From the NCBI GenBank assembly GCA_034422315.1, contig DAOUJT010000039.1, positions 1,488-65,487 of the forward strand: DNA of 64,000 bases. The letters are read 5' to 3'. The position numbers were made by a program, and so were the translations under genes. This document shows, piece after piece, positions 2,886 to 57,945 of this stretch (the stretch's first letter is position 1; each line of letters begins with the position of its first letter). The stretch comes from Chloroflexota bacterium. GTDB lineage: Bacteria > Chloroflexota > UBA11872. The notes under the pieces are model-generated. The model was not told the origin of the DNA and ran no database searches. It worked only from the letters and a program-made list of their open reading frames with translations.

Positions 2886-3028
2886 CCTCGACCCTCGCCA
2901 CGAATCAGAGCCACGGCCTCCCCAACCACCGCCCTCGCCGCACGCACCTCCCACCGCCAGCGCGTCGCTCGTTCCCCTCTACCCTTCGCTTCTACACCTC
3001 GTTCTCACTTCTCTCCCCCTTCCTCACT

Positions 3029-3163
3029 GGACACCTGCCCCGCCAAGGTGGACACATTTGGATGGAAACAGGACACATTGCCCTCGAAAGTGGACACATT
3101 CAGCCAAAAAGTGGACACATCCGGCGAAAAACTGGACACATCTGCCCAACGGAGTGGACACAT
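3029..3163 (+). repeat. Seven GGACAC(A/C)T cores at 21-bp period
   Basis: GGACAC at 3029, 3050, 3071, 3092, 3113, 3134, 3156; A-tracts precede the cores. Confidence 0.95.
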
Positions 3164-3250
3164 GCGGCGATGTGGCAACCACCCGCCGCCACGCCGCCCC
3201 TGTCACTCTGAGATCTCCCGCTGAATCTCCTCGCTTATCCATGAGCCCGC

Positions 3251-3279
3251 TGGCGGTCAGTACCCAATAGATGTACAAT
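3251..3279 (+). promoter_or_regulatory. Candidate sigma70 promoter of composite element copy A
   Basis: TACAAT at 3274-3279 with a weak -35 (TGGCGG) 17 bp upstream; same position in the element as copies B and C. Confidence 0.4.
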
Positions 3280-3641
3280 AGGGCGTATCGCCCTATCCCG
3301 GTCGGAATCCCGCGTGCCCGCGCTGCTCCTCTACCCGCTGCTTCTGTCGTCCCGTCCCTGGTCGGTCTGCGGCCGGGCCCTGCGTGTCTTCCTGCTGAAC
3401 CTCATCCCCTTCCTTCCCAGCCGATCCACCCACCGCCCGGCTCGCCTAGTGGTCCCGGGCAGTCCGGCAAACGACCTGGCCCATACCCGAAACCGGGCCG
3501 AAATCCAGTCGCCGCCCCTCGACGCCTCTCATCCCCCACGGCTCAACGCCCGCCGACACCATGGCGTTGCGCGCGCCGTGGGCTGTGTCCTGGGCGCCCC
3601 GTCCCCAAACTCGCGCCGATTCCCCCAAGAAATCCGCCAAA

Positions 3642-3694
3642 AACCCTCTCTCGCCAGCGCACCCCCTGTGGGGGTGCGCTGGCGAGAGAGGGTT
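3642..3694. repeat. Perfect 25-bp inverted repeat (hairpin family copy A); may also terminate the ABC operon
   Basis: AACCCTCTCTCGCCAGCGCACCCCC-TGT-GGGGGTGCGCTGGCGAGAGAGGGTT, immediately after the stop at 3701-3703. Confidence 0.95.
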
Positions 3695-3700
3695 CCCCCT

Positions 3701-5581
3701 TTAATCCCCCGTCCGCAACGCCGCCGCGTCGATGTCCTCGCCGCCGGTCGACAGCCCCAGGGTGTACAGGTTGTAGTACAGCCCGGCCTTCGCCAGCAGT
3801 TCCGCGTGCGTGCCGCGTTCCACGATGCGGCCCTGGTCCATCACCAGCACCTCCGTCGCGTTCCGAACCGTCGAGAGCCGGTGCGCGATCACGAAACTGG
3901 TGCGGCCTCGCATCATCGTCTCCATCGCGTCCTGGATAATCCCCTCGGTCTGCGTGTCCACCGAACTCGTCGCCTCGTCCAGCACCAGCACCCGCGGATC
4001 GGTCAGCAGCGCCCGCGCGAACGACACCAGCTGCCGCTGCCCCGTCGACAGCCCGCCGCCCCGTTCCTCGATCGGCGTGTCGTACCCGAACGGCAGGCTC
4101 TCCACGAACTCGTGCAACCGCACCGCCTTCGCCACCTCGATCACCTCGGCCCGCGTCGCATCCGCCCGTCCGTAGGCGATGTTGTCGTGAATGCTCCCGC
4201 TGAACAGAAACGGCTCCTGCAGCACCAACCCGATCTGGCGCCGCAGCGAAGCCTGGCTCACCCGGCGCACGTCGTGCCCGTCGATCCTCACCGATCCGGC
4301 GCTGGCGTCGTAAAACCGCAGCAGCAGGTTGATGATCGTGGTCTTGCCCGCGCCCGTGGCGCCCACCAGCGCAATCCGGTCGCCCGGCTTGGCCACGATC
4401 TCGGCCTCGTGCAGCACCGGCCGGCCCGCCTCGTAGGCAAAGCCCACCCGCTCGAACCGAACCTCGCCCCGCACTGGCGGCAACTCACGAGCGTCGGGCT
4501 GGTCGTGCATGGTTTCGTCGGTGTCCAGGATTTCGAACACCCGCTCGGCCGACGTCATCGCCGCCTGGATCGCCCCCCACCGCGTCGCCAACTCCTGCAC
4601 CGGACCGAAGAACCGCTCGATATACAGCACAAAGGCCGTCACCACCCCCAGCGTCACCGTGTCGGACCCGTCCAGCACGAACGATCCGCCCAACCACAAC
4701 ACCAGCCCGGTCGAGATCGCCGTGAATACCTCCACCGCCGGCTCGGCCGACGACGTAACCGTCATCGCTCGCATCTGCGATTGCGCTTGGGCGTGATTCA
4801 CCTCGTCGAAGCGCGCGGCATTCACGTCCTCGCGAGTGAAGGCCTGGATCACGCGCATTCCCAGGATCGATTCGGCCAGCACCCCGTTCAGCGTCGATGT
4901 CCGCGTCCGCATCATCCGGTAGGCGGCCTGCGCCACCCGAGCAAACACGACCCCGCTCAGCAGCATGAACGGAGCCACCGCCACCGCGATCAGCGTCAGT
5001 TCCCAGCTCAGCAGCGCCATCGCCACCAGGATTCCGATCAGGATCGCCATGTCGGCCACCAGCCCGATCGCCCCCTCGGTCACCGCCTCCCCGACCTGCT
5101 CCACGTCCGACGCCATCCGCCCGATCAGCCGCCCGGTGATCTGCCGGTCGTAAAACCCCAGCGGCAGGGCCTGGTACTTGCGGAACATCTCCATCCGCAT
5201 GGCCTGCAACATGCGCTGGCCGAGGTCCGCGTTGACCACCAGCTGAACCGCCGTGCCGCCGGCCTGGCCAAGGGTCACGCCCAGGAAGACCAGCGCAGCC
5301 ACCGTCAACACCCCGGCGTCGCCGGCTCGGATGCCGTCGTCGATCGCCAACCCGATCAACGCCGGCTGCGCCATCGTCGTCCCGGCAACGACCAGCACCG
5401 TCGCTATGGCAATCAGCAGTCGTCGTCGATCCCGCGCCAGGTATCCCAGCAGGCGCAGCAACACCCGCCGGTCGAAGCCTTCAAAACCGGACTCTTCCTG
5501 GACAAACGTCCCGCGCGCCTGGGACGTCCCCATCCCCATCCCGGACCCCATCCCGGACCCCATCCCCATTCCCATACTCAT
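3701..5581 (-). CDS. ABC exporter, fused TMD-NBD (MsbA/MdlB-like), subunit 2
   Basis: Walker A GATGAGKTT, signature LSTGQRQ, Walker B VLVLDEATSSVD; six TM segments; Met/Gly-rich N-terminus. Confidence 0.95.
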   Translation of the reverse strand: MSMGMGMGSGMGSGMGMGTSQARGTFVQEESGFEGFDRRVLLRLLGYLARDRRRLLIAIATVLVVAGTTMAQPALIGLAIDDGIRAGDAGVLTVAALVFLGVTLGQAGGTAVQLVVNADLGQRMLQAMRMEMFRKYQALPLGFYDRQITGRLIGRMASDVEQVGEAVTEGAIGLVADMAILIGILVAMALLSWELTLIAVAVAPFMLLSGVVFARVAQAAYRMMRTRTSTLNGVLAESILGMRVIQAFTREDVNAARFDEVNHAQAQSQMRAMTVTSSAEPAVEVFTAISTGLVLWLGGSFVLDGSDTVTLGVVTAFVLYIERFFGPVQELATRWGAIQAAMTSAERVFEILDTDETMHDQPDARELPPVRGEVRFERVGFAYEAGRPVLHEAEIVAKPGDRIALVGATGAGKTTIINLLLRFYDASAGSVRIDGHDVRRVSQASLRRQIGLVLQEPFLFSGSIHDNIAYGRADATRAEVIEVAKAVRLHEFVESLPFGYDTPIEERGGGLSTGQRQLVSFARALLTDPRVLVLDEATSSVDTQTEGIIQDAMETMMRGRTSFVIAHRLSTVRNATEVLVMDQGRIVERGTHAELLAKAGLYYNLYTLGLSTGGEDIDAAALRTGD

Positions 5582-30480: not shown

Positions 30481-30588
30481 CCTGATTTGCGAGGGGCGCG
30501 CAGCGGCAGCGCAACCGGCCGTCGTGGGGATCGGATAGGCCTGAGAATGGGTGGACGGGGGCAGAAATCGGTGGGGGGTGAAGGGGGG

Positions 30589-30644
30589 AGCGCTCTCTCG
30601 CCAGCCCGAACCCCTATGGGGGGTTCGGGCTGGCGAGAGAGCGC
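30589..30644. repeat. Perfect 26-bp inverted repeat (hairpin family copy B)
   Basis: AGCGCTCTCTCGCCAGCCCGAACCCC-TATG-GGGGTTCGGGCTGGCGAGAGAGCGCT; flanks GGGTGAAGGGGGG and GGCGGATTTTT. Confidence 0.95.
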
Positions 30645-30875
30645 TTAGGCGGATTTTTTGGCGGGGCTGCGACGAAGGTTGGGGCTGCGAGGGGACGGCA
30701 GGACGGCCCCAGCGACGCTGGGGGCGCGGACGTGGCGAGGGGGTGGGGCGGAGGCGTCTCGATCGGCCTCTACGCAAGGCGAAGAACGAGCGGGGACGCT
30801 CGGTGACGGAAGGGGCGAGCAGGCGGAGGAGGCGGGCGAGCATGGAGGTTTCGGGGGATGGGATAGAGTGCTTCC

Positions 30876-30904
30876 ATTGTATACGAGATGATTACAAAAG
30901 GCAA
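30876..30904 (-). promoter_or_regulatory. sigma70-type promoter in composite element copy B
   Basis: TTGCCT-17 bp-TACAAT on the minus strand. Confidence 0.65.
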
Positions 30905-31019
30905 GGATGATAGGGGTGGGAAGAAAGGGAAAGGGCAGAGGAGTGAGAAAGGAGCCGGAGAAGAAAGGGAGCGTGGAGGGAGAGGTTCGGAAGAGGCGGG
31001 GGCGGGCGGAACCTGGGAT

Positions 31020-31112
31020 GTGTTCACCCGGTCGGGGCAAGGTGTCCAGTTTCGGGGCCAATGTGTCCCGTTTTTTGCCGAATGTGTCCACTTTGGTGGG
31101 GCATGTGTCCAG
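31020..31112 (-). repeat. Five GGACACAT-type cores at 21-22 bp period (same family as 3029-3163, inverted)
   Basis: Plus-strand GTGTTC/GTGTCC at 31020, 31042, 31063, 31084, 31105. Confidence 0.93.
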
Positions 31113-31204: not shown

Positions 31205-31347
31205 CTTCGGCAAGCTCAGGACAGGCCACTTCGACAAGCTCAGGACAGGCCACTTCGACAAGCTCAGGACAGGCCGCTTCGACAAGCTCAGGACAGGCCG
31301 CTTCGACAAGCTCAGGACAGGCCGCTTCGACAGGCTCAGGGCAGGCT
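31205..31347. repeat. Six tandem 24-bp REP-like units CTTCGACAAGCTCAGGACAGGCC(A/G)
   Basis: Direct inspection; units start at 31205, 31229, 31253, 31277, 31301, 31325. Confidence 0.95.
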
Positions 31348-31649: not shown

Positions 31650-31721
31650 TCTCGGCAGGCTCAGGACAGGCCGCTTCGACAGGCTCAGGACAGGCCACTT
31701 GGACAAGCTCGGGACAGGCTC
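31650..31721. repeat. Three further tandem 24-bp REP-like units
   Basis: Same consensus as 31205-31347, more degenerate. Confidence 0.9.
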
Positions 31722-32078
31722 TCCGCGGACGCCGAGAAGACGGGCAGCCAGGGGCGTTGGGTGTCGGGGGCGCGGCTCGTCGTTGGAGGGTTGGGGCGTA
31801 TGACCGGCGTTCGCAGGTTCCAGGCTGCGTGCAGCCCAGGCGACCGGGCGGGCCACAGGAGGGGCCGGTTTGACTGAACGCCGGAGGGCCGCGGATGACA
31901 TCGGGCGCGTGGTCGAGGCACGCAGTGACCACGGTGATCGACGTCGCGACGCGGCGGAAGGATCGTCGCAACTCAACGTGACCCACTACCCCGCGTCGTT
32001 CCCGATTGCGAACCTCGGCTCCAAGTGCAAGCATGGACGTATCGAACTGGTCCATGGGCGGTAGGGAGACCACTTGCA

Positions 32079-32447
32079 ATGGCTACTGACGCCGCCCCGC
32101 TCACCCGAGACGACCTGCGCGACGAACTACAACGCGCACTGACCCACTACGCGACGAAGGCCGATCTGGCCGAGTTGCGCGACGAACTGCGTAGCGCGAT
32201 GGCGCACTACGCGACCAAAGCCGACCTGGCTGAACTGCGAGATGAACTCCGCGTTGAATTCAATCGCACGTTGACCCACTACGCGACCAAGGCTGCCGTC
32301 GCTGACCTGCGAGCCGACGTCCAGGCGACGCGTGCCGAGTTCAAGGCCGACCTCCACAGCCAGACCCGCTGGATGGTCATCGCCGTTCTGGGATCGGTCA
32401 GCGCCGCCGCCACCGTCACCGGACTGATCGTCCGATTCTTCAGCTAG
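32079..32447 (+). CDS. CCDC90/DUF1640-like coiled-coil protein with HYATKADL repeats and a C-terminal TM anchor
   Basis: GGGAG SD; three HYATKA units (20 and 24 aa apart); TRWMVIAVLG... anchor. Confidence 0.8.
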   Translation: MATDAAPLTRDDLRDELQRALTHYATKADLAELRDELRSAMAHYATKADLAELRDELRVEFNRTLTHYATKAAVADLRADVQATRAEFKADLHSQTRWMVIAVLGSVSAAATVTGLIVRFFS

Positions 32448-57425: not shown

Positions 57426-57644
57426 GAGGCAAATCGGGGGGCATTTTGGCGGGGTGGGGGAGGAAGGGTGGAGGGGAGAGGGAAGAGAAGTGAGAGCGGA
57501 TAGGCACGGGGCTGGGGACGGGGTGCGGATCGGGTGGGTGAGGTCTTGGTGGGACGCTGGACGGCGCGGTGAGCCGAGGTCGGAGTTTGGACGGGGTTGA
57601 GGGCGGGCGCCTGGCGGCGGAATTTGGGTGGGGGTGAAGGGGGG

Positions 57645-57697
57645 AACTGTCGCTGGCCAGCCGGCCCCCAGAGGGGGCCGGCTGGCCAGCGACAGTT
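57645..57697. repeat. Perfect 25-bp inverted repeat (hairpin family copy C)
   Basis: AACTGTCGCTGGCCAGCCGGCCCCC-AGA-GGGGGCCGGCTGGCCAGCGACAGTT; flanks GGGTGAAGGGGGG and GGCGGATTTTT. Confidence 0.95.
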
Positions 57698-57916
57698 TGG
57701 GCGGATTTTTCGGGCGGCAGGGGAAGGCGAGGCGTGAGTGAGGCAAGAAGGGGAGAGGGCAGAGGGCAGAGGAGTGAGAGCGGAAGGGGGTGGGTAGCGA
57801 CGGGTCTCCACGCAAGATGCGGAGCAAGCGGGGGCGGGGGGTGCGGGGGGTGAGCCGTTGGAGGAGGCGGGTGAGCATGGAGGGTTCGGGGGATGGATGT
57901 GGAATCGGGCGCCTCT

Positions 57917-57945
57917 AGTGTACACTGGGTGGTTACGAAGGGCAA
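57917..57945 (-). promoter_or_regulatory. sigma70-type promoter in composite element copy C
   Basis: TTGCCC-17 bp-TACACT on the minus strand, homologous to 30876-30904. Confidence 0.6.

Follow-up and report, generated by a model that had tools for sequence, protein, structure and literature searches.

The window discussed herein (the entire 64,000-nucleotide stretch of Chloroflexota DNA that was analyzed) contains two rows of short direct repeats, and these raise the question of where such repeats come from and what protein might read them. The first-pass annotation described a seven-unit array and an inverted five-unit array, phased at 21 bp with one spacing of 22. Both arrays are present as described, and in both the 22-bp spacing is the last step.

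3028 to 3163, + strand: array 1, seven 21-bp units with the core TGGACACAT, one AGGACACAT and one TGGACACCT; the final step is 22 bp
31018 to 31111, - strand: array 2, five units carrying TGGACACAT (twice), GGGACACAT, TGGACACCT and a terminal TGAACACAT

By direct reading and motif search, the cores of array 1 start on the + strand at positions 3028, 3049, 3070, 3091, 3112, 3133, and 3155, which corresponds to five spacings of 21 bp followed by one of 22. Those of array 2 lie on the - strand at 31103, 31082, 31061, 31040, and 31018 (spacings of 21, 21, 21, and 22), and Tandem Repeats Finder (TRF) likewise assigns a period of 21 to both arrays. The raw number of cores is unremarkable, as TGGACACAT with at most one mismatch occurs 15 times in the window versus 9 expected. 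Rather, it is the clustering and phasing of the cores that depart from chance. A search pattern of three phased cores produces hundreds of matches across 18 genomes of the genus, whereas the reversed-pattern control produces none in 61 genomes.

The same architecture recurs well beyond the window. The genome from which it derives (3.30 Mb in 217 contigs, 65.7% G+C) contains at least 16 arrays with three or more GGACAC cores, and the genome-wide scan for a 21-bp period that the annotation had suggested found every one of these 16 to be phased on the same grid. Arrays of the TGAACAC type (variant TGAACACAT), such as that at C6:520-640, are additional to this number. When 123 non-redundant arrays from this genome and from related loci are pooled, 441 of 456 internal spacings (97%) are exactly 21 bp, and the phasing is therefore preserved in copies other than the two first noticed. 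Uninterrupted runs most commonly comprise six units (54 arrays), followed by five (30) and four (22), and 100 of the 123 arrays end with a step of 22 or 23 bp. Tandem pairs of arrays separated by 190-340 bp occur at many loci, the first typically of the TGGACACAT type and the second of the TGAACACAT type.

Phased A-tracts had also been proposed, and they prove to be real: in internal units, the AAA at positions -5 to -3 carries 1.4-1.7 bits of information, and the AT that follows the core carries 1.7-1.9 bits. The linkers, however, are not freely variable as had been supposed. Across the pooled arrays, the entire 21-bp internal unit follows the consensus CC-AAAA(C/G)TG(G/A)ACACAT(T/C)GGCCC, in which a core of 9-10 nt is flanked by semi-conserved linkers of about 11-12 nt. 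The terminal unit (cgACagAGTGAACACATCC) lacks the A-tract.

Among the 24 genomes of the genus, 18 carry arrays, and none was found in the 37 genomes from sister genera, families, and orders in this comparison of the 60 nearest genomes. A separate scan of one genome per species detected arrays in many uncultured Chloroflexota, several of which have closed chromosomes, and the order of array, promoter, and hairpin is kept in nearly all of the array-bearing Chloroflexota found in this way. Outside the phylum, TGGACACAT arrays with a 21-bp period occur in Aquaticitalea and Solirubrobacterales (L042, L053). Judging by MAG isolate names alone, the host genus is apparently associated with sponges.

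As this order indicates, an array does not stand by itself but forms the left end of a cassette of approximately 0.6-0.9 kb that consists, in order, of a CT-rich lead, one or more arrays, a sigma70-like promoter, an SD sequence with a start codon, a C-rich body, and a 3′ hairpin. Every array in this genome is followed by a spacer of 80-400 bp, which often contains other repeat modules. The promoter-like sequence reads TTGCC-N17-(G)TGTACA(A/C)T, and some 25-35 nt past it there is a GGAG, GGAA, or AGGA, with ATG or GTG 6-9 nt further on; the SD sequence and start codon are conserved about 35 nt after the -10 element. The body (150-460 nt) is 40-57% C with G as low as 9%, and in the 3′ module a perfect hairpin of about 40-47 nt is preceded by AAAATCCGCC-AAA and followed by TCCCCCCTTCACCCCC. 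The parts present in the window are as follows.

3004 to 3027, + strand: CT-rich lead CTCACTTCTCTCCCCCTTCCTCAC at the start of cassette copy 1, immediately before the first array unit
3250 to 3279, + strand: promoter-like box of copy 1, ATGTACAAT, with the -10 sequence TACAAT at 3274-3279 and a poor -35
3304 to 3316, + strand: SD-like GGAA with GTG (3314) 6-7 nt on; the C-rich frame has no stop before the hairpin
3629 to 3709, + strand: 3′ module of copy 1, comprising GAAATCCGCCAAAAACC, a 20-pair hairpin (3645-3691) and TTCCCCCTTTAATCCCC
30876 to 30904, - strand: promoter-like site of copy 2, TTGCCT-17 nt-TACAAT, with 9/12 matches by the promoter scanner and 0 in shuffled sequences
30574 to 30657, - strand: 3′ module of copy 2, comprising AAAATCCGCC, a long hairpin and TCCCCCCTTCACCCCC
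57630 to 57945, - strand: third cassette, which has no array; promoter TTGCCC-N17-TACACT (57917-57945) and 3′ module (57630-57709)

The CT-rich lead of copy 1 also precedes the arrays on contigs C122, C205, and C211. The consensus promoter scanner makes no call at the promoter-like box of copy 1, and the paralogues of this box read TTGCC-N17-TACA(A/C)T. The distance between array and promoter, originally put at about 115-140 bp, is 111 bp in copy 1 (from the core end at 3163 to the -10 hexamer at 3274-3279) and 137 bp in copy 2 (from the core at 31018 to the hexamer at 30876-30881), in good agreement with that estimate. Because cassettes without an array exist, such as the third one in the window, the portion that runs from promoter to hairpin can stand without an array.

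The neighbors of the two window arrays are genes for a PIN toxin, an ABC exporter, and cmk. Read on the - strand, the hairpin of copy 1 resembles an intrinsic terminator that would serve the convergent ABC exporter gene, and about 360 nt separate the 3′ module of copy 2 from the cmk gene downstream, which has the same direction. Searches for Rfam families and tRNAs gave no hits in the window. A protein-coding role for the cassette body was also considered. However, the frame set by the start codon is random with respect to the 3′ module (21:17:14 for the three registers) and most frames lack a stop, and thus the body is not an ordinary gene. Likewise, no full-length parent protein beginning with MLARLLRLL or MPARLPRL was found. 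Of practical concern, the cassettes disrupt assemblies, and gene callers convert them into spurious proline- and arginine-rich ORFs.

Cassettes are dispersed at about 20-30 per genome in one Chloroflexota genus, mostly just 5′ of co-directional host genes. The hairpin module has the same range as the array, save for one match in a genome of another family. Because the two share this range, the array, promoter, and hairpin are best regarded as parts of one element family confined to the genus. At least one copy appears to be young. The cassette upstream of cmk (copy 2) is found only in this genome and its sister among the 19 genomes with enough upstream sequence, and both of these carry the fusion gene described below. 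The left junction is sharp and falls precisely at the CT-rich lead and first unit when filled and empty alleles are compared, and at the right junction a replacement is evident, with 670 bp in the filled site taking the place of 185 bp in the empty one. Comparison of the filled and empty sites reveals no direct repeat or target-site duplication. From this pattern of presence and absence, the cmk-upstream cassette appears to be a recent gain.

The origin of the repeat unit is apparent from a comparison of its core with the ends of insertion sequences residing in the same genome, as the first-pass annotation had recommended. Letter for letter, the core GTGGACACAT (or GTGAACACAT) matches the inner inverted repeat of an IS481-family element found there, the part of the end that the N-terminal domain of the transposase would read. 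One intact IS481 copy is present in this genome (contig C106). Its inverted repeats of about 50 bp include CGGAGACATGGTGGACACATT, and both of them contain the 10-mer GTGGACACAT; the copy from a sister genus (L122) has GTGAACACATT in its inverted repeat and carries the A variant of the 10-mer. In general, the inverted repeats of these elements contain two copies of GGAGACA-N3-TGGACAC, and the inner copy is GGTGGACACATT in the C106 element and AGTGAACACATT in the sister-genus element, which correspond to the two core variants found in arrays. The transposases themselves are encoded by multi-copy ORFs of 380-440 aa that have the N-terminus RAEFVALARQPGANRRALCRRFGIAPxTGYKWL followed by a WGxRKL region.

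The anatomy of the arrays can be understood from this source. The last array unit would keep the native IS481 context GGAGACA-N3-TGGACAC with its spacing of about 23 nt, and this retention would explain both the 22-23-bp final step and the absence of an A-tract from the terminal unit. The internal units would then be amplified derivatives in which GGAGACATGG was exchanged for an A-tract linker, and in front of the fusion gene described below the repeat would have been expanded to six phased copies.

The first-pass annotation had proposed, beside a decoy or an enhancer-like site, a transposase-binding array with its sites on the same face of the helix, and had likened the phasing to that of IS21 and Tn7-like ends and the unit to IS3/IS21-type cores. 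The proposal of a transposase-binding array holds in substance, as the core is the inner repeat of a resident IS and the cognate helix-turn-helix (HTH) domain is encoded in the same genome. The family, however, is IS481 rather than IS21 or Tn7 (the HTH matches IS481, IS3, and IS630 models), and the arrays are not located at transposon ends. Indeed, no inverted partner array, no transposase gene between two ends, and no target duplication was found at arrays or cassettes. The outer terminus of the inverted repeat (TGT...AGACCGG) is also absent; the window arrays follow a CT-rich lead, and the other end of the cassette is a hairpin. An IS481 end has two repeats about 23 nt apart that adjoin a cleaved TGT terminus, with a matching inverted end, whereas an array comprises five to seven units spaced by 21 bp, with A-tract linkers and no outer inverted repeat. 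Without an inverted second end, outer repeat, or target duplication, ordinary IS481 transposition of the cassette is unlikely, and for the same reasons we rejected the possibility that the cassette is an IS481 MITE.

A candidate reader of the arrays emerged from three loci at which, in place of the short cassette, a 483-aa gene starts about 50 nt past a six-unit array and has a hairpin module after it. This arrangement was not part of the annotation and adds to its reading. The N-terminus of the encoded protein (P0001) is an HTH domain (HTH_23/HTH_Tnp_1) for which NCBIfam gives matches to the N-terminal part of IS481, IS3, and IS630 transposases, and it is 65-82% identical to IS481 transposase N-termini. 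The remainder is a terminase large subunit (TerL; PHROG_2, E 5e-21), with a match to the TerL ATPase of Thermus phage P74-26 (PDB 4znj, E 1.5e-9). In the genome from which the window derives, the fusion gene is located at C6:679-2127, with six TGAACACAT units before it (C6:520-640) and a hairpin after it (C6:2279-2316). The array at fused genes is positioned about 50 nt 5′ of the ATG, and the cassette promoter is lacking. All invariant ATPase and nuclease motifs are kept, with no internal stop codons in nine genomes, and on these grounds the fusion looks active. PADLOC returned no match that would place it in a defense system.

Relatives of the fused protein suggest how it arose. TerL genes of lineage A, which comprises the fusions, occur in nine genomes of the genus. 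Those of lineage B are about 82% identical to the fusion from residue 51 onward and are preceded by a small ORF resembling the terminase small subunit (TerS), and those of lineage C, which are found family-wide, are about 63-66% identical and also have a TerS-like ORF. The complete arrangement, with an array upstream and a hairpin downstream, is observed for the fused genes at C6, L025, L069, L111, L118, L119, and L120. At L052 the array is present and the locus ends before the hairpin, and L121 is degenerate with no hairpin match. Neither array nor hairpin was found at the non-fused genes of lineages B or C (Fisher p 9e-5, with kinship ignored). In the fused lineage the TerS-like ORF is missing, and in every fused gene examined the array occupies its place. 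In alignment A3, the left end of IS481 runs parallel to the fusions from the last two array units through the 5′-UTR and the ATG into the HTH codons. This colinearity indicates that an IS481 left end probably replaced the terS gene, with the two reading frames joined just past the recognition helix.

The surroundings of these genes are not those of a prophage, as the neighbors of both fused and non-fused TerL genes are restriction-modification, defense, and metabolic genes. Lineages A and B share an enolase-family gene as downstream neighbor, and every genome of these two lineages has a single homologue of an HK97-type major head protein 5-14 kb downstream of TerL; in lineage B, a weakly portal-like gene is located directly upstream. 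The head genes detected (portal-like, phrog_156, E 2e-4; MCP-like, phrog_544, E 1.6e-12) are dispersed among metabolic genes, and by this gene content the TerL locus appears to be a degenerate, dispersed remnant of a head-gene set. It is also not the parent of a MITE from which the cassettes derive: the fused gene lacks the cassette promoter, its N-terminus is unrelated, and the array and hairpin alone are common to the two.

Outside the genus with TerL lineages A and B, neither arrays nor hairpin modules were found among the genomes compared, apart from the one stray hairpin match in another family. Within this one genus, and with kinship ignored, fusion-bearing genomes have more arrays (a median of 26 versus 5 triple hits, p 0.004) and more cassettes (a median of 19 versus 3, p 0.03).

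We read the anatomy and phasing of the arrays, the identity of their core with the IS481 inner repeat, the capture of the matching HTH, the array at fused genes, and this co-distribution as the marks of platforms on which IS481-type HTH domains would load cooperatively and on the same face of the DNA. The apparently recent gain of the cmk-upstream cassette and the slow change of cores between orthologous arrays (below) are further points in its favor. Given what can be deduced from sequence, we assign this reading a probability of roughly 0.6. Each unit would bind one IS481-type HTH, and the two-turn spacing together with the A-tracts would align five or six proteins along one face of bent DNA. 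This genome encodes two candidate readers, the fusion (C6) and the intact transposase (C106). Cooperative binding to the units would anchor either the ATPase-nuclease or the transposase 5′ of the cassette promoter, and the outcome could be promoter control, DNA cutting or translocation at that place, or both, or perhaps mobility of the cassette.

Some observations limit how closely the arrays and the fusion can be tied. The existence of cassettes without arrays, and the absence of an inverted second end and of a target duplication, also weigh against the HTH-loading reading. Lineage B genomes have about 10 arrays each without the fusion. No homologue of the HTH was detected in G006 (a closed genome; E 1e-3), G015, or G023, all of which bear arrays, and in G016 and G018, left ends of IS481 that have been truncated account for the short HTH ORFs. 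We therefore discarded the idea that the fusion is a requirement for arrays. Because arrays persist without it, the fusion is not needed for their upkeep, and there may be another reader. Two accounts would fit, a recent loss of the HTH from some lineages or a further factor that also reads the arrays. We also considered whether the HTH and the core type (G or A at position 3) vary together. The APAT variant of the HTH accompanies an A-type core in five of five cases, but L118 has the same HTH as L025 and the other core. This covariation is loose, suggestive at best, and we do not count it as evidence.

It is tempting to speculate further about the terminase itself, although we consider the following unlikely. 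A domesticated terminase might have lost its small subunit, captured the IS481 HTH, and come to use the dispersed arrays as chromosomal loading sites, with its ring assembled on five or six same-face sites. Such an enzyme could begin cleavage or translocation on behalf of a residual portal and capsid module, in the manner of a gene transfer agent (GTA) with chromosomal pac sites. Another option is that the enzyme cuts and mobilizes the cassettes of array, promoter, and hairpin themselves, which would then constitute a terminase-driven mobile element.

The main alternative to loading by an IS481-type HTH, though one that we regard as improbable, is that the arrays are cis-regulatory upstream elements that work through a host factor or through intrinsic curvature and resemble IS481 ends by ancestry only. 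Under this explanation, the phased A-tracts and cores form a bent region that activates or represses the cassette promoter. The placement of the arrays fits such a role, as they lie 76-300 bp from the -10 element, always upstream of the promoter and in a single orientation, and 18 of the 23 cassettes in this genome have a co-directional gene within a few hundred bases downstream (p = 0.01). Those genes encode a sulfatase, a peptide-binding protein, Cmk, MoeA, HisG, a Clp ATPase, and a sulfite reductase, among others, and they are functionally unrelated, which speaks against both a regulon and this explanation more generally.

Conservation bears on the same question. Orthologous arrays of G006 and G016 can be compared, neither of which has the fusion and the first of which lacks any detectable HTH homologue. 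Between them, change amounts to 5.9% in cores, 11% in linkers, 19% at A-tract positions, and 24.9% in flanks (p 4e-16 for the core plus AT versus flanks). This pattern points to constraint on arrays also in genomes that lack the fusion, as would be expected if a host factor were involved. However, of all parts of the unit, the A-tract positions have changed most, and thus curvature alone is not what is kept. In addition, no candidate host factor was found, and the array at fused TerL genes is situated directly before the ATG with no cassette promoter on which to act.

A still less probable explanation is that the arrays are functionless parts of a selfish, mosaic intergenic repeat of the BOX or BIME kind, generated by slippage and maintained by recent spread and gene conversion. 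The intergenic regions in question are indeed mosaics of CT-rich leads, 24-bp GAGCCTGTCCTGAGCCTGTCGAAG repeats, REP-like palindromes, and hairpins. Orthologous arrays can differ in unit number (seven versus five), cassettes are gained and lost, and at one locus all four G-type cores have switched to A between sister genomes, which is suggestive of conversion. Yet neighboring units vary in their linkers while their cores are intact, and because orthologous arrays keep their own linkers between species, the similarity among units is not the result of homogenization. The core-specific conservation described above, the stereotyped form of the array (with its six-unit mode, 97% exact spacing, and distinct terminal unit), and its constant pairing with the fused HTH gene would likewise be unexpected of junk.

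There is very little to recommend the remaining proposals, in which the arrays are iterons of an integrated plasmid or phage (suggested by the 21-22-bp period and five to seven units), a CRISPR-like array, or the remnant of a coding repeat of seven amino acids (21 bp being seven codons): more than 16 copies are dispersed over the chromosome next to housekeeping genes, and their surroundings lack a rep gene, DnaA boxes, and an AT-rich unwinding region; the variable parts of 12 nt are, as the first-pass annotation correctly stated, too short for spacers, since CRISPR repeats of 23-50 nt have spacers of similar length; and the arrays are intergenic, the unit information profile of the 123 arrays shows no three-base periodicity, and a reading frame would be lost at the last step of 22-23 bp and wherever a step of 20 or 22 bp occasionally occurs.

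Arrays read by IS481-type HTH domains would resemble several known systems. The 22-bp TnsB sites of Tn7, the MuA sites of Mu, and the terminal repeats of IS21 are rows of direct transposase-binding sites at one end of an element, and the arrays similarly have several direct sites of about 21-22 bp in a row. The ends of Tn7, Mu, and IS21, however, form inverted pairs around transposition genes and are accompanied by target duplications, neither of which is seen here. No inverted second array was found in any cassette, and the cognate domain is an IS481-type HTH and not of the TnsB, MuA, or IstA families.

The R sites of lambda cosB, the SPP1 pacL and pacR sites with their phased A-tracts, and the hexamer rows of P1 pac are read by the small terminase subunit. 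As in those systems, the arrays at fused TerL genes are phased repeat rows, probably with bent DNA, directly upstream of TerL at the terS position. This placement is found at C6, L025, L069, L111, and L118-L120, and not for the two window arrays. The arrays differ from pac and cos sites in that the reader domain is a transposase HTH rather than a TerS fold, the sites number about 20-70 and are dispersed over the chromosome, and only a degenerate head-gene set was found. Cleavage or packaging at the arrays would be hypothetical. Thus, the arrays have features of both multi-site transposase ends and cosB or pacL/pacR sites and are a member of neither class.

Plasmid iterons (R6K gamma ori, P1 oriR/incA, and F ori2/incC) comprise five to seven repeats with a period of 21-22 bp. 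The arrays are similar in the number of direct repeats, in period, and presumably in cooperative binding on the same face, but they have no Rep gene or origin features and are present in many chromosomal copies. Like pneumococcal BOX and enterobacterial BIME elements, the cassettes are modular, multi-copy, and intergenic, with variable tandem sub-units, hairpins, and a location near genes. The arrays and cassettes fit this descriptive class, which is compatible with the HTH-loading reading. To our knowledge, BOX and BIME modules do not derive from a transposase site whose cognate domain is encoded in the same genome.

Perhaps the closest parallel in concept is to be found in eukaryotic transposase capture. 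SETMAR is a fusion of a host protein with a transposase for which dispersed sites derived from terminal inverted repeats (TIRs) of Hsmar1 and MADE1 exist (PMC2847698; bioRxiv 10.1101/2020.05.07.082677). In both cases, a transposase DNA-binding domain is joined to an unrelated enzyme and transposon-end sites are scattered through the genome. The present case differs in that it is bacterial, the partner is a terminase ATPase-nuclease, and the sites are multimerized in phased rows rather than present as single TIRs.

In the full-text literature, we found no published description of the array, the cassette, or the fusion. Rows of transposase sites at transposon ends and phased repeats at phage packaging sites are both known, and here the two are joined. 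What appears to be new is the assignment of the source site to the inner inverted repeat of IS481 and the capture of the cognate HTH by a stand-alone terminase in place of TerS. The proposed explanation of the 22-23-bp terminal step also seems to be new, as does the apparent constraint on arrays where the fusion is absent. Multiplication of an IS-end site has produced a helically phased array, which is carried with a portable promoter before many unrelated housekeeping genes. If the binding proposed here is true, then these Chloroflexota would offer a bacterial counterpart of SETMAR-type transposase capture and a compact system for studying the joint origin of a DNA-recognition specificity and its genome-wide sites. 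Furthermore, if the terminase acts at the arrays, this would represent a new way to address a DNA motor or nuclease to defined chromosomal loci.

The orthologous cassettes upstream of cmk were compared between this genome (array 2, window 31018-31111, minus strand) and its sister genome G021 (L128:762-874). In our genome, the first four cores of this row of 21-bp-phased units carry G (TGGACAC or GGGACAC) and only the terminal unit reads TGAACAC, whereas all six cores of the G021 array are TGAACAC, even though the linkers of the two arrays are similar. Judged from these sequences, the core type has switched in concert within the array.

Two runs of a 24-bp repeat and a small ORF lie beside this array:
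Window 31205-31346: 5.9 tandem copies of CTTCGACAAGCTCAGGACAGGCCG, just upstream of array 2
Window 31652-31719: 2.8 tandem copies of CTTCGACAAGCTCAGGACAGGCCG, upstream of array 2
Window 32111-32248: 2.3 tandem copies of a 60-bp repeat, within the small ORF at 32025-32447
The unit family of the 24-bp repeat also occurs in other cassettes, in the form GAGCCTGTCCTGAGCCTGTCGAAG, between array and promoter. The small ORF and cassette copy 2 are divergently oriented; the 60-bp repeat in the ORF codes for repeated LTHYATKADLAELRDEL, and the ORF product has a membrane helix at the C-terminal end.

Arrays with a 21-bp period were also found outside Chloroflexota:
L042:134-560 and L005:7587-7900: 21-bp arrays in an Aquaticitalea MAG (Bacteroidota, 39% G+C)
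L053:~4660-4760, minus orientation: four to five units of CTGGACACAT with a 21-bp period in a Solirubrobacterales (actinobacterial) MAG
In the Aquaticitalea unit, agreement with the inner end of the inverted repeat of the Chloroflexota IS481 (GTGGACACATTGGGGAG) extends past the 9 nt that were searched for. Its arrays comprise 14-20 near-identical units (GTGTGGACACATTGGGAGTTT) with an aminotransferase gene downstream; the Solirubrobacterales units precede a nucleotidyltransferase-like gene.

Terminase large subunit (TerL) genes and head-gene remnants occupy the following sites:
C40:15960-17580 (own genome) and L112:9690-11311: lineage C pair of a TerS-like small ORF and a non-fused TerL
C6:679-16300 (own genome) and G012:C1:3146000-3159000 (L125, L113, L126): syntenic, dispersed head-gene remnant
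C6:2353-2571 (own genome) and L069:2119-3049: 5′-truncated remnants of a second TerL gene
The lineage C pair is kept in all genomes of the family, and it stands without array, hairpin or phage neighbors. In front of it lies TTGTCAAACGGACnCC-TTAGTGTACACT, a sequence that has the palindromic GTGTACAC box in common with the promoters of the cassettes. The head-gene remnant, present across the genus, runs from a TerS-like ORF or array through TerL and several metabolic genes to a single homologue of the HK97-type major head protein (phrog_544 match, E 1.6e-12); in lineage B genomes, a portal-like gene lies directly upstream. The truncated remnants directly follow the fused TerL element's hairpin, and several genomes carry short orphan TerL 3′ ends at other sites.

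The CT-rich module of the cassette is interrupted in two different genomes:
L040:~3700-4600, minus strand: IS110-family transposase gene
L027:~1250-2000: IS110-family transposase gene
Both genes (MATARDVGVGIDVAKAQLDV...) have a structured 5′ region, and the insertion point (...CTTCTCTCCCCTT|GTATGTTCC) is identical. The module seems to be a preferred target of IS110.

Reading frames open at a conserved Shine-Dalgarno sequence with ATG or GTG:
Window 30841-30574, minus strand: cassette frames
Window 3314-3629, plus strand: cassette frame
These frames and those of paralogues are extremely C-rich (starting, for example, MLARLLRLL... or MPARLPRLRPLA...), and most lack stop codons as far as the hairpin and past it. 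If translated, they would amount to non-stop messages, and gene callers will report spurious Pro/Arg/Ser-rich ORFs at cassettes.
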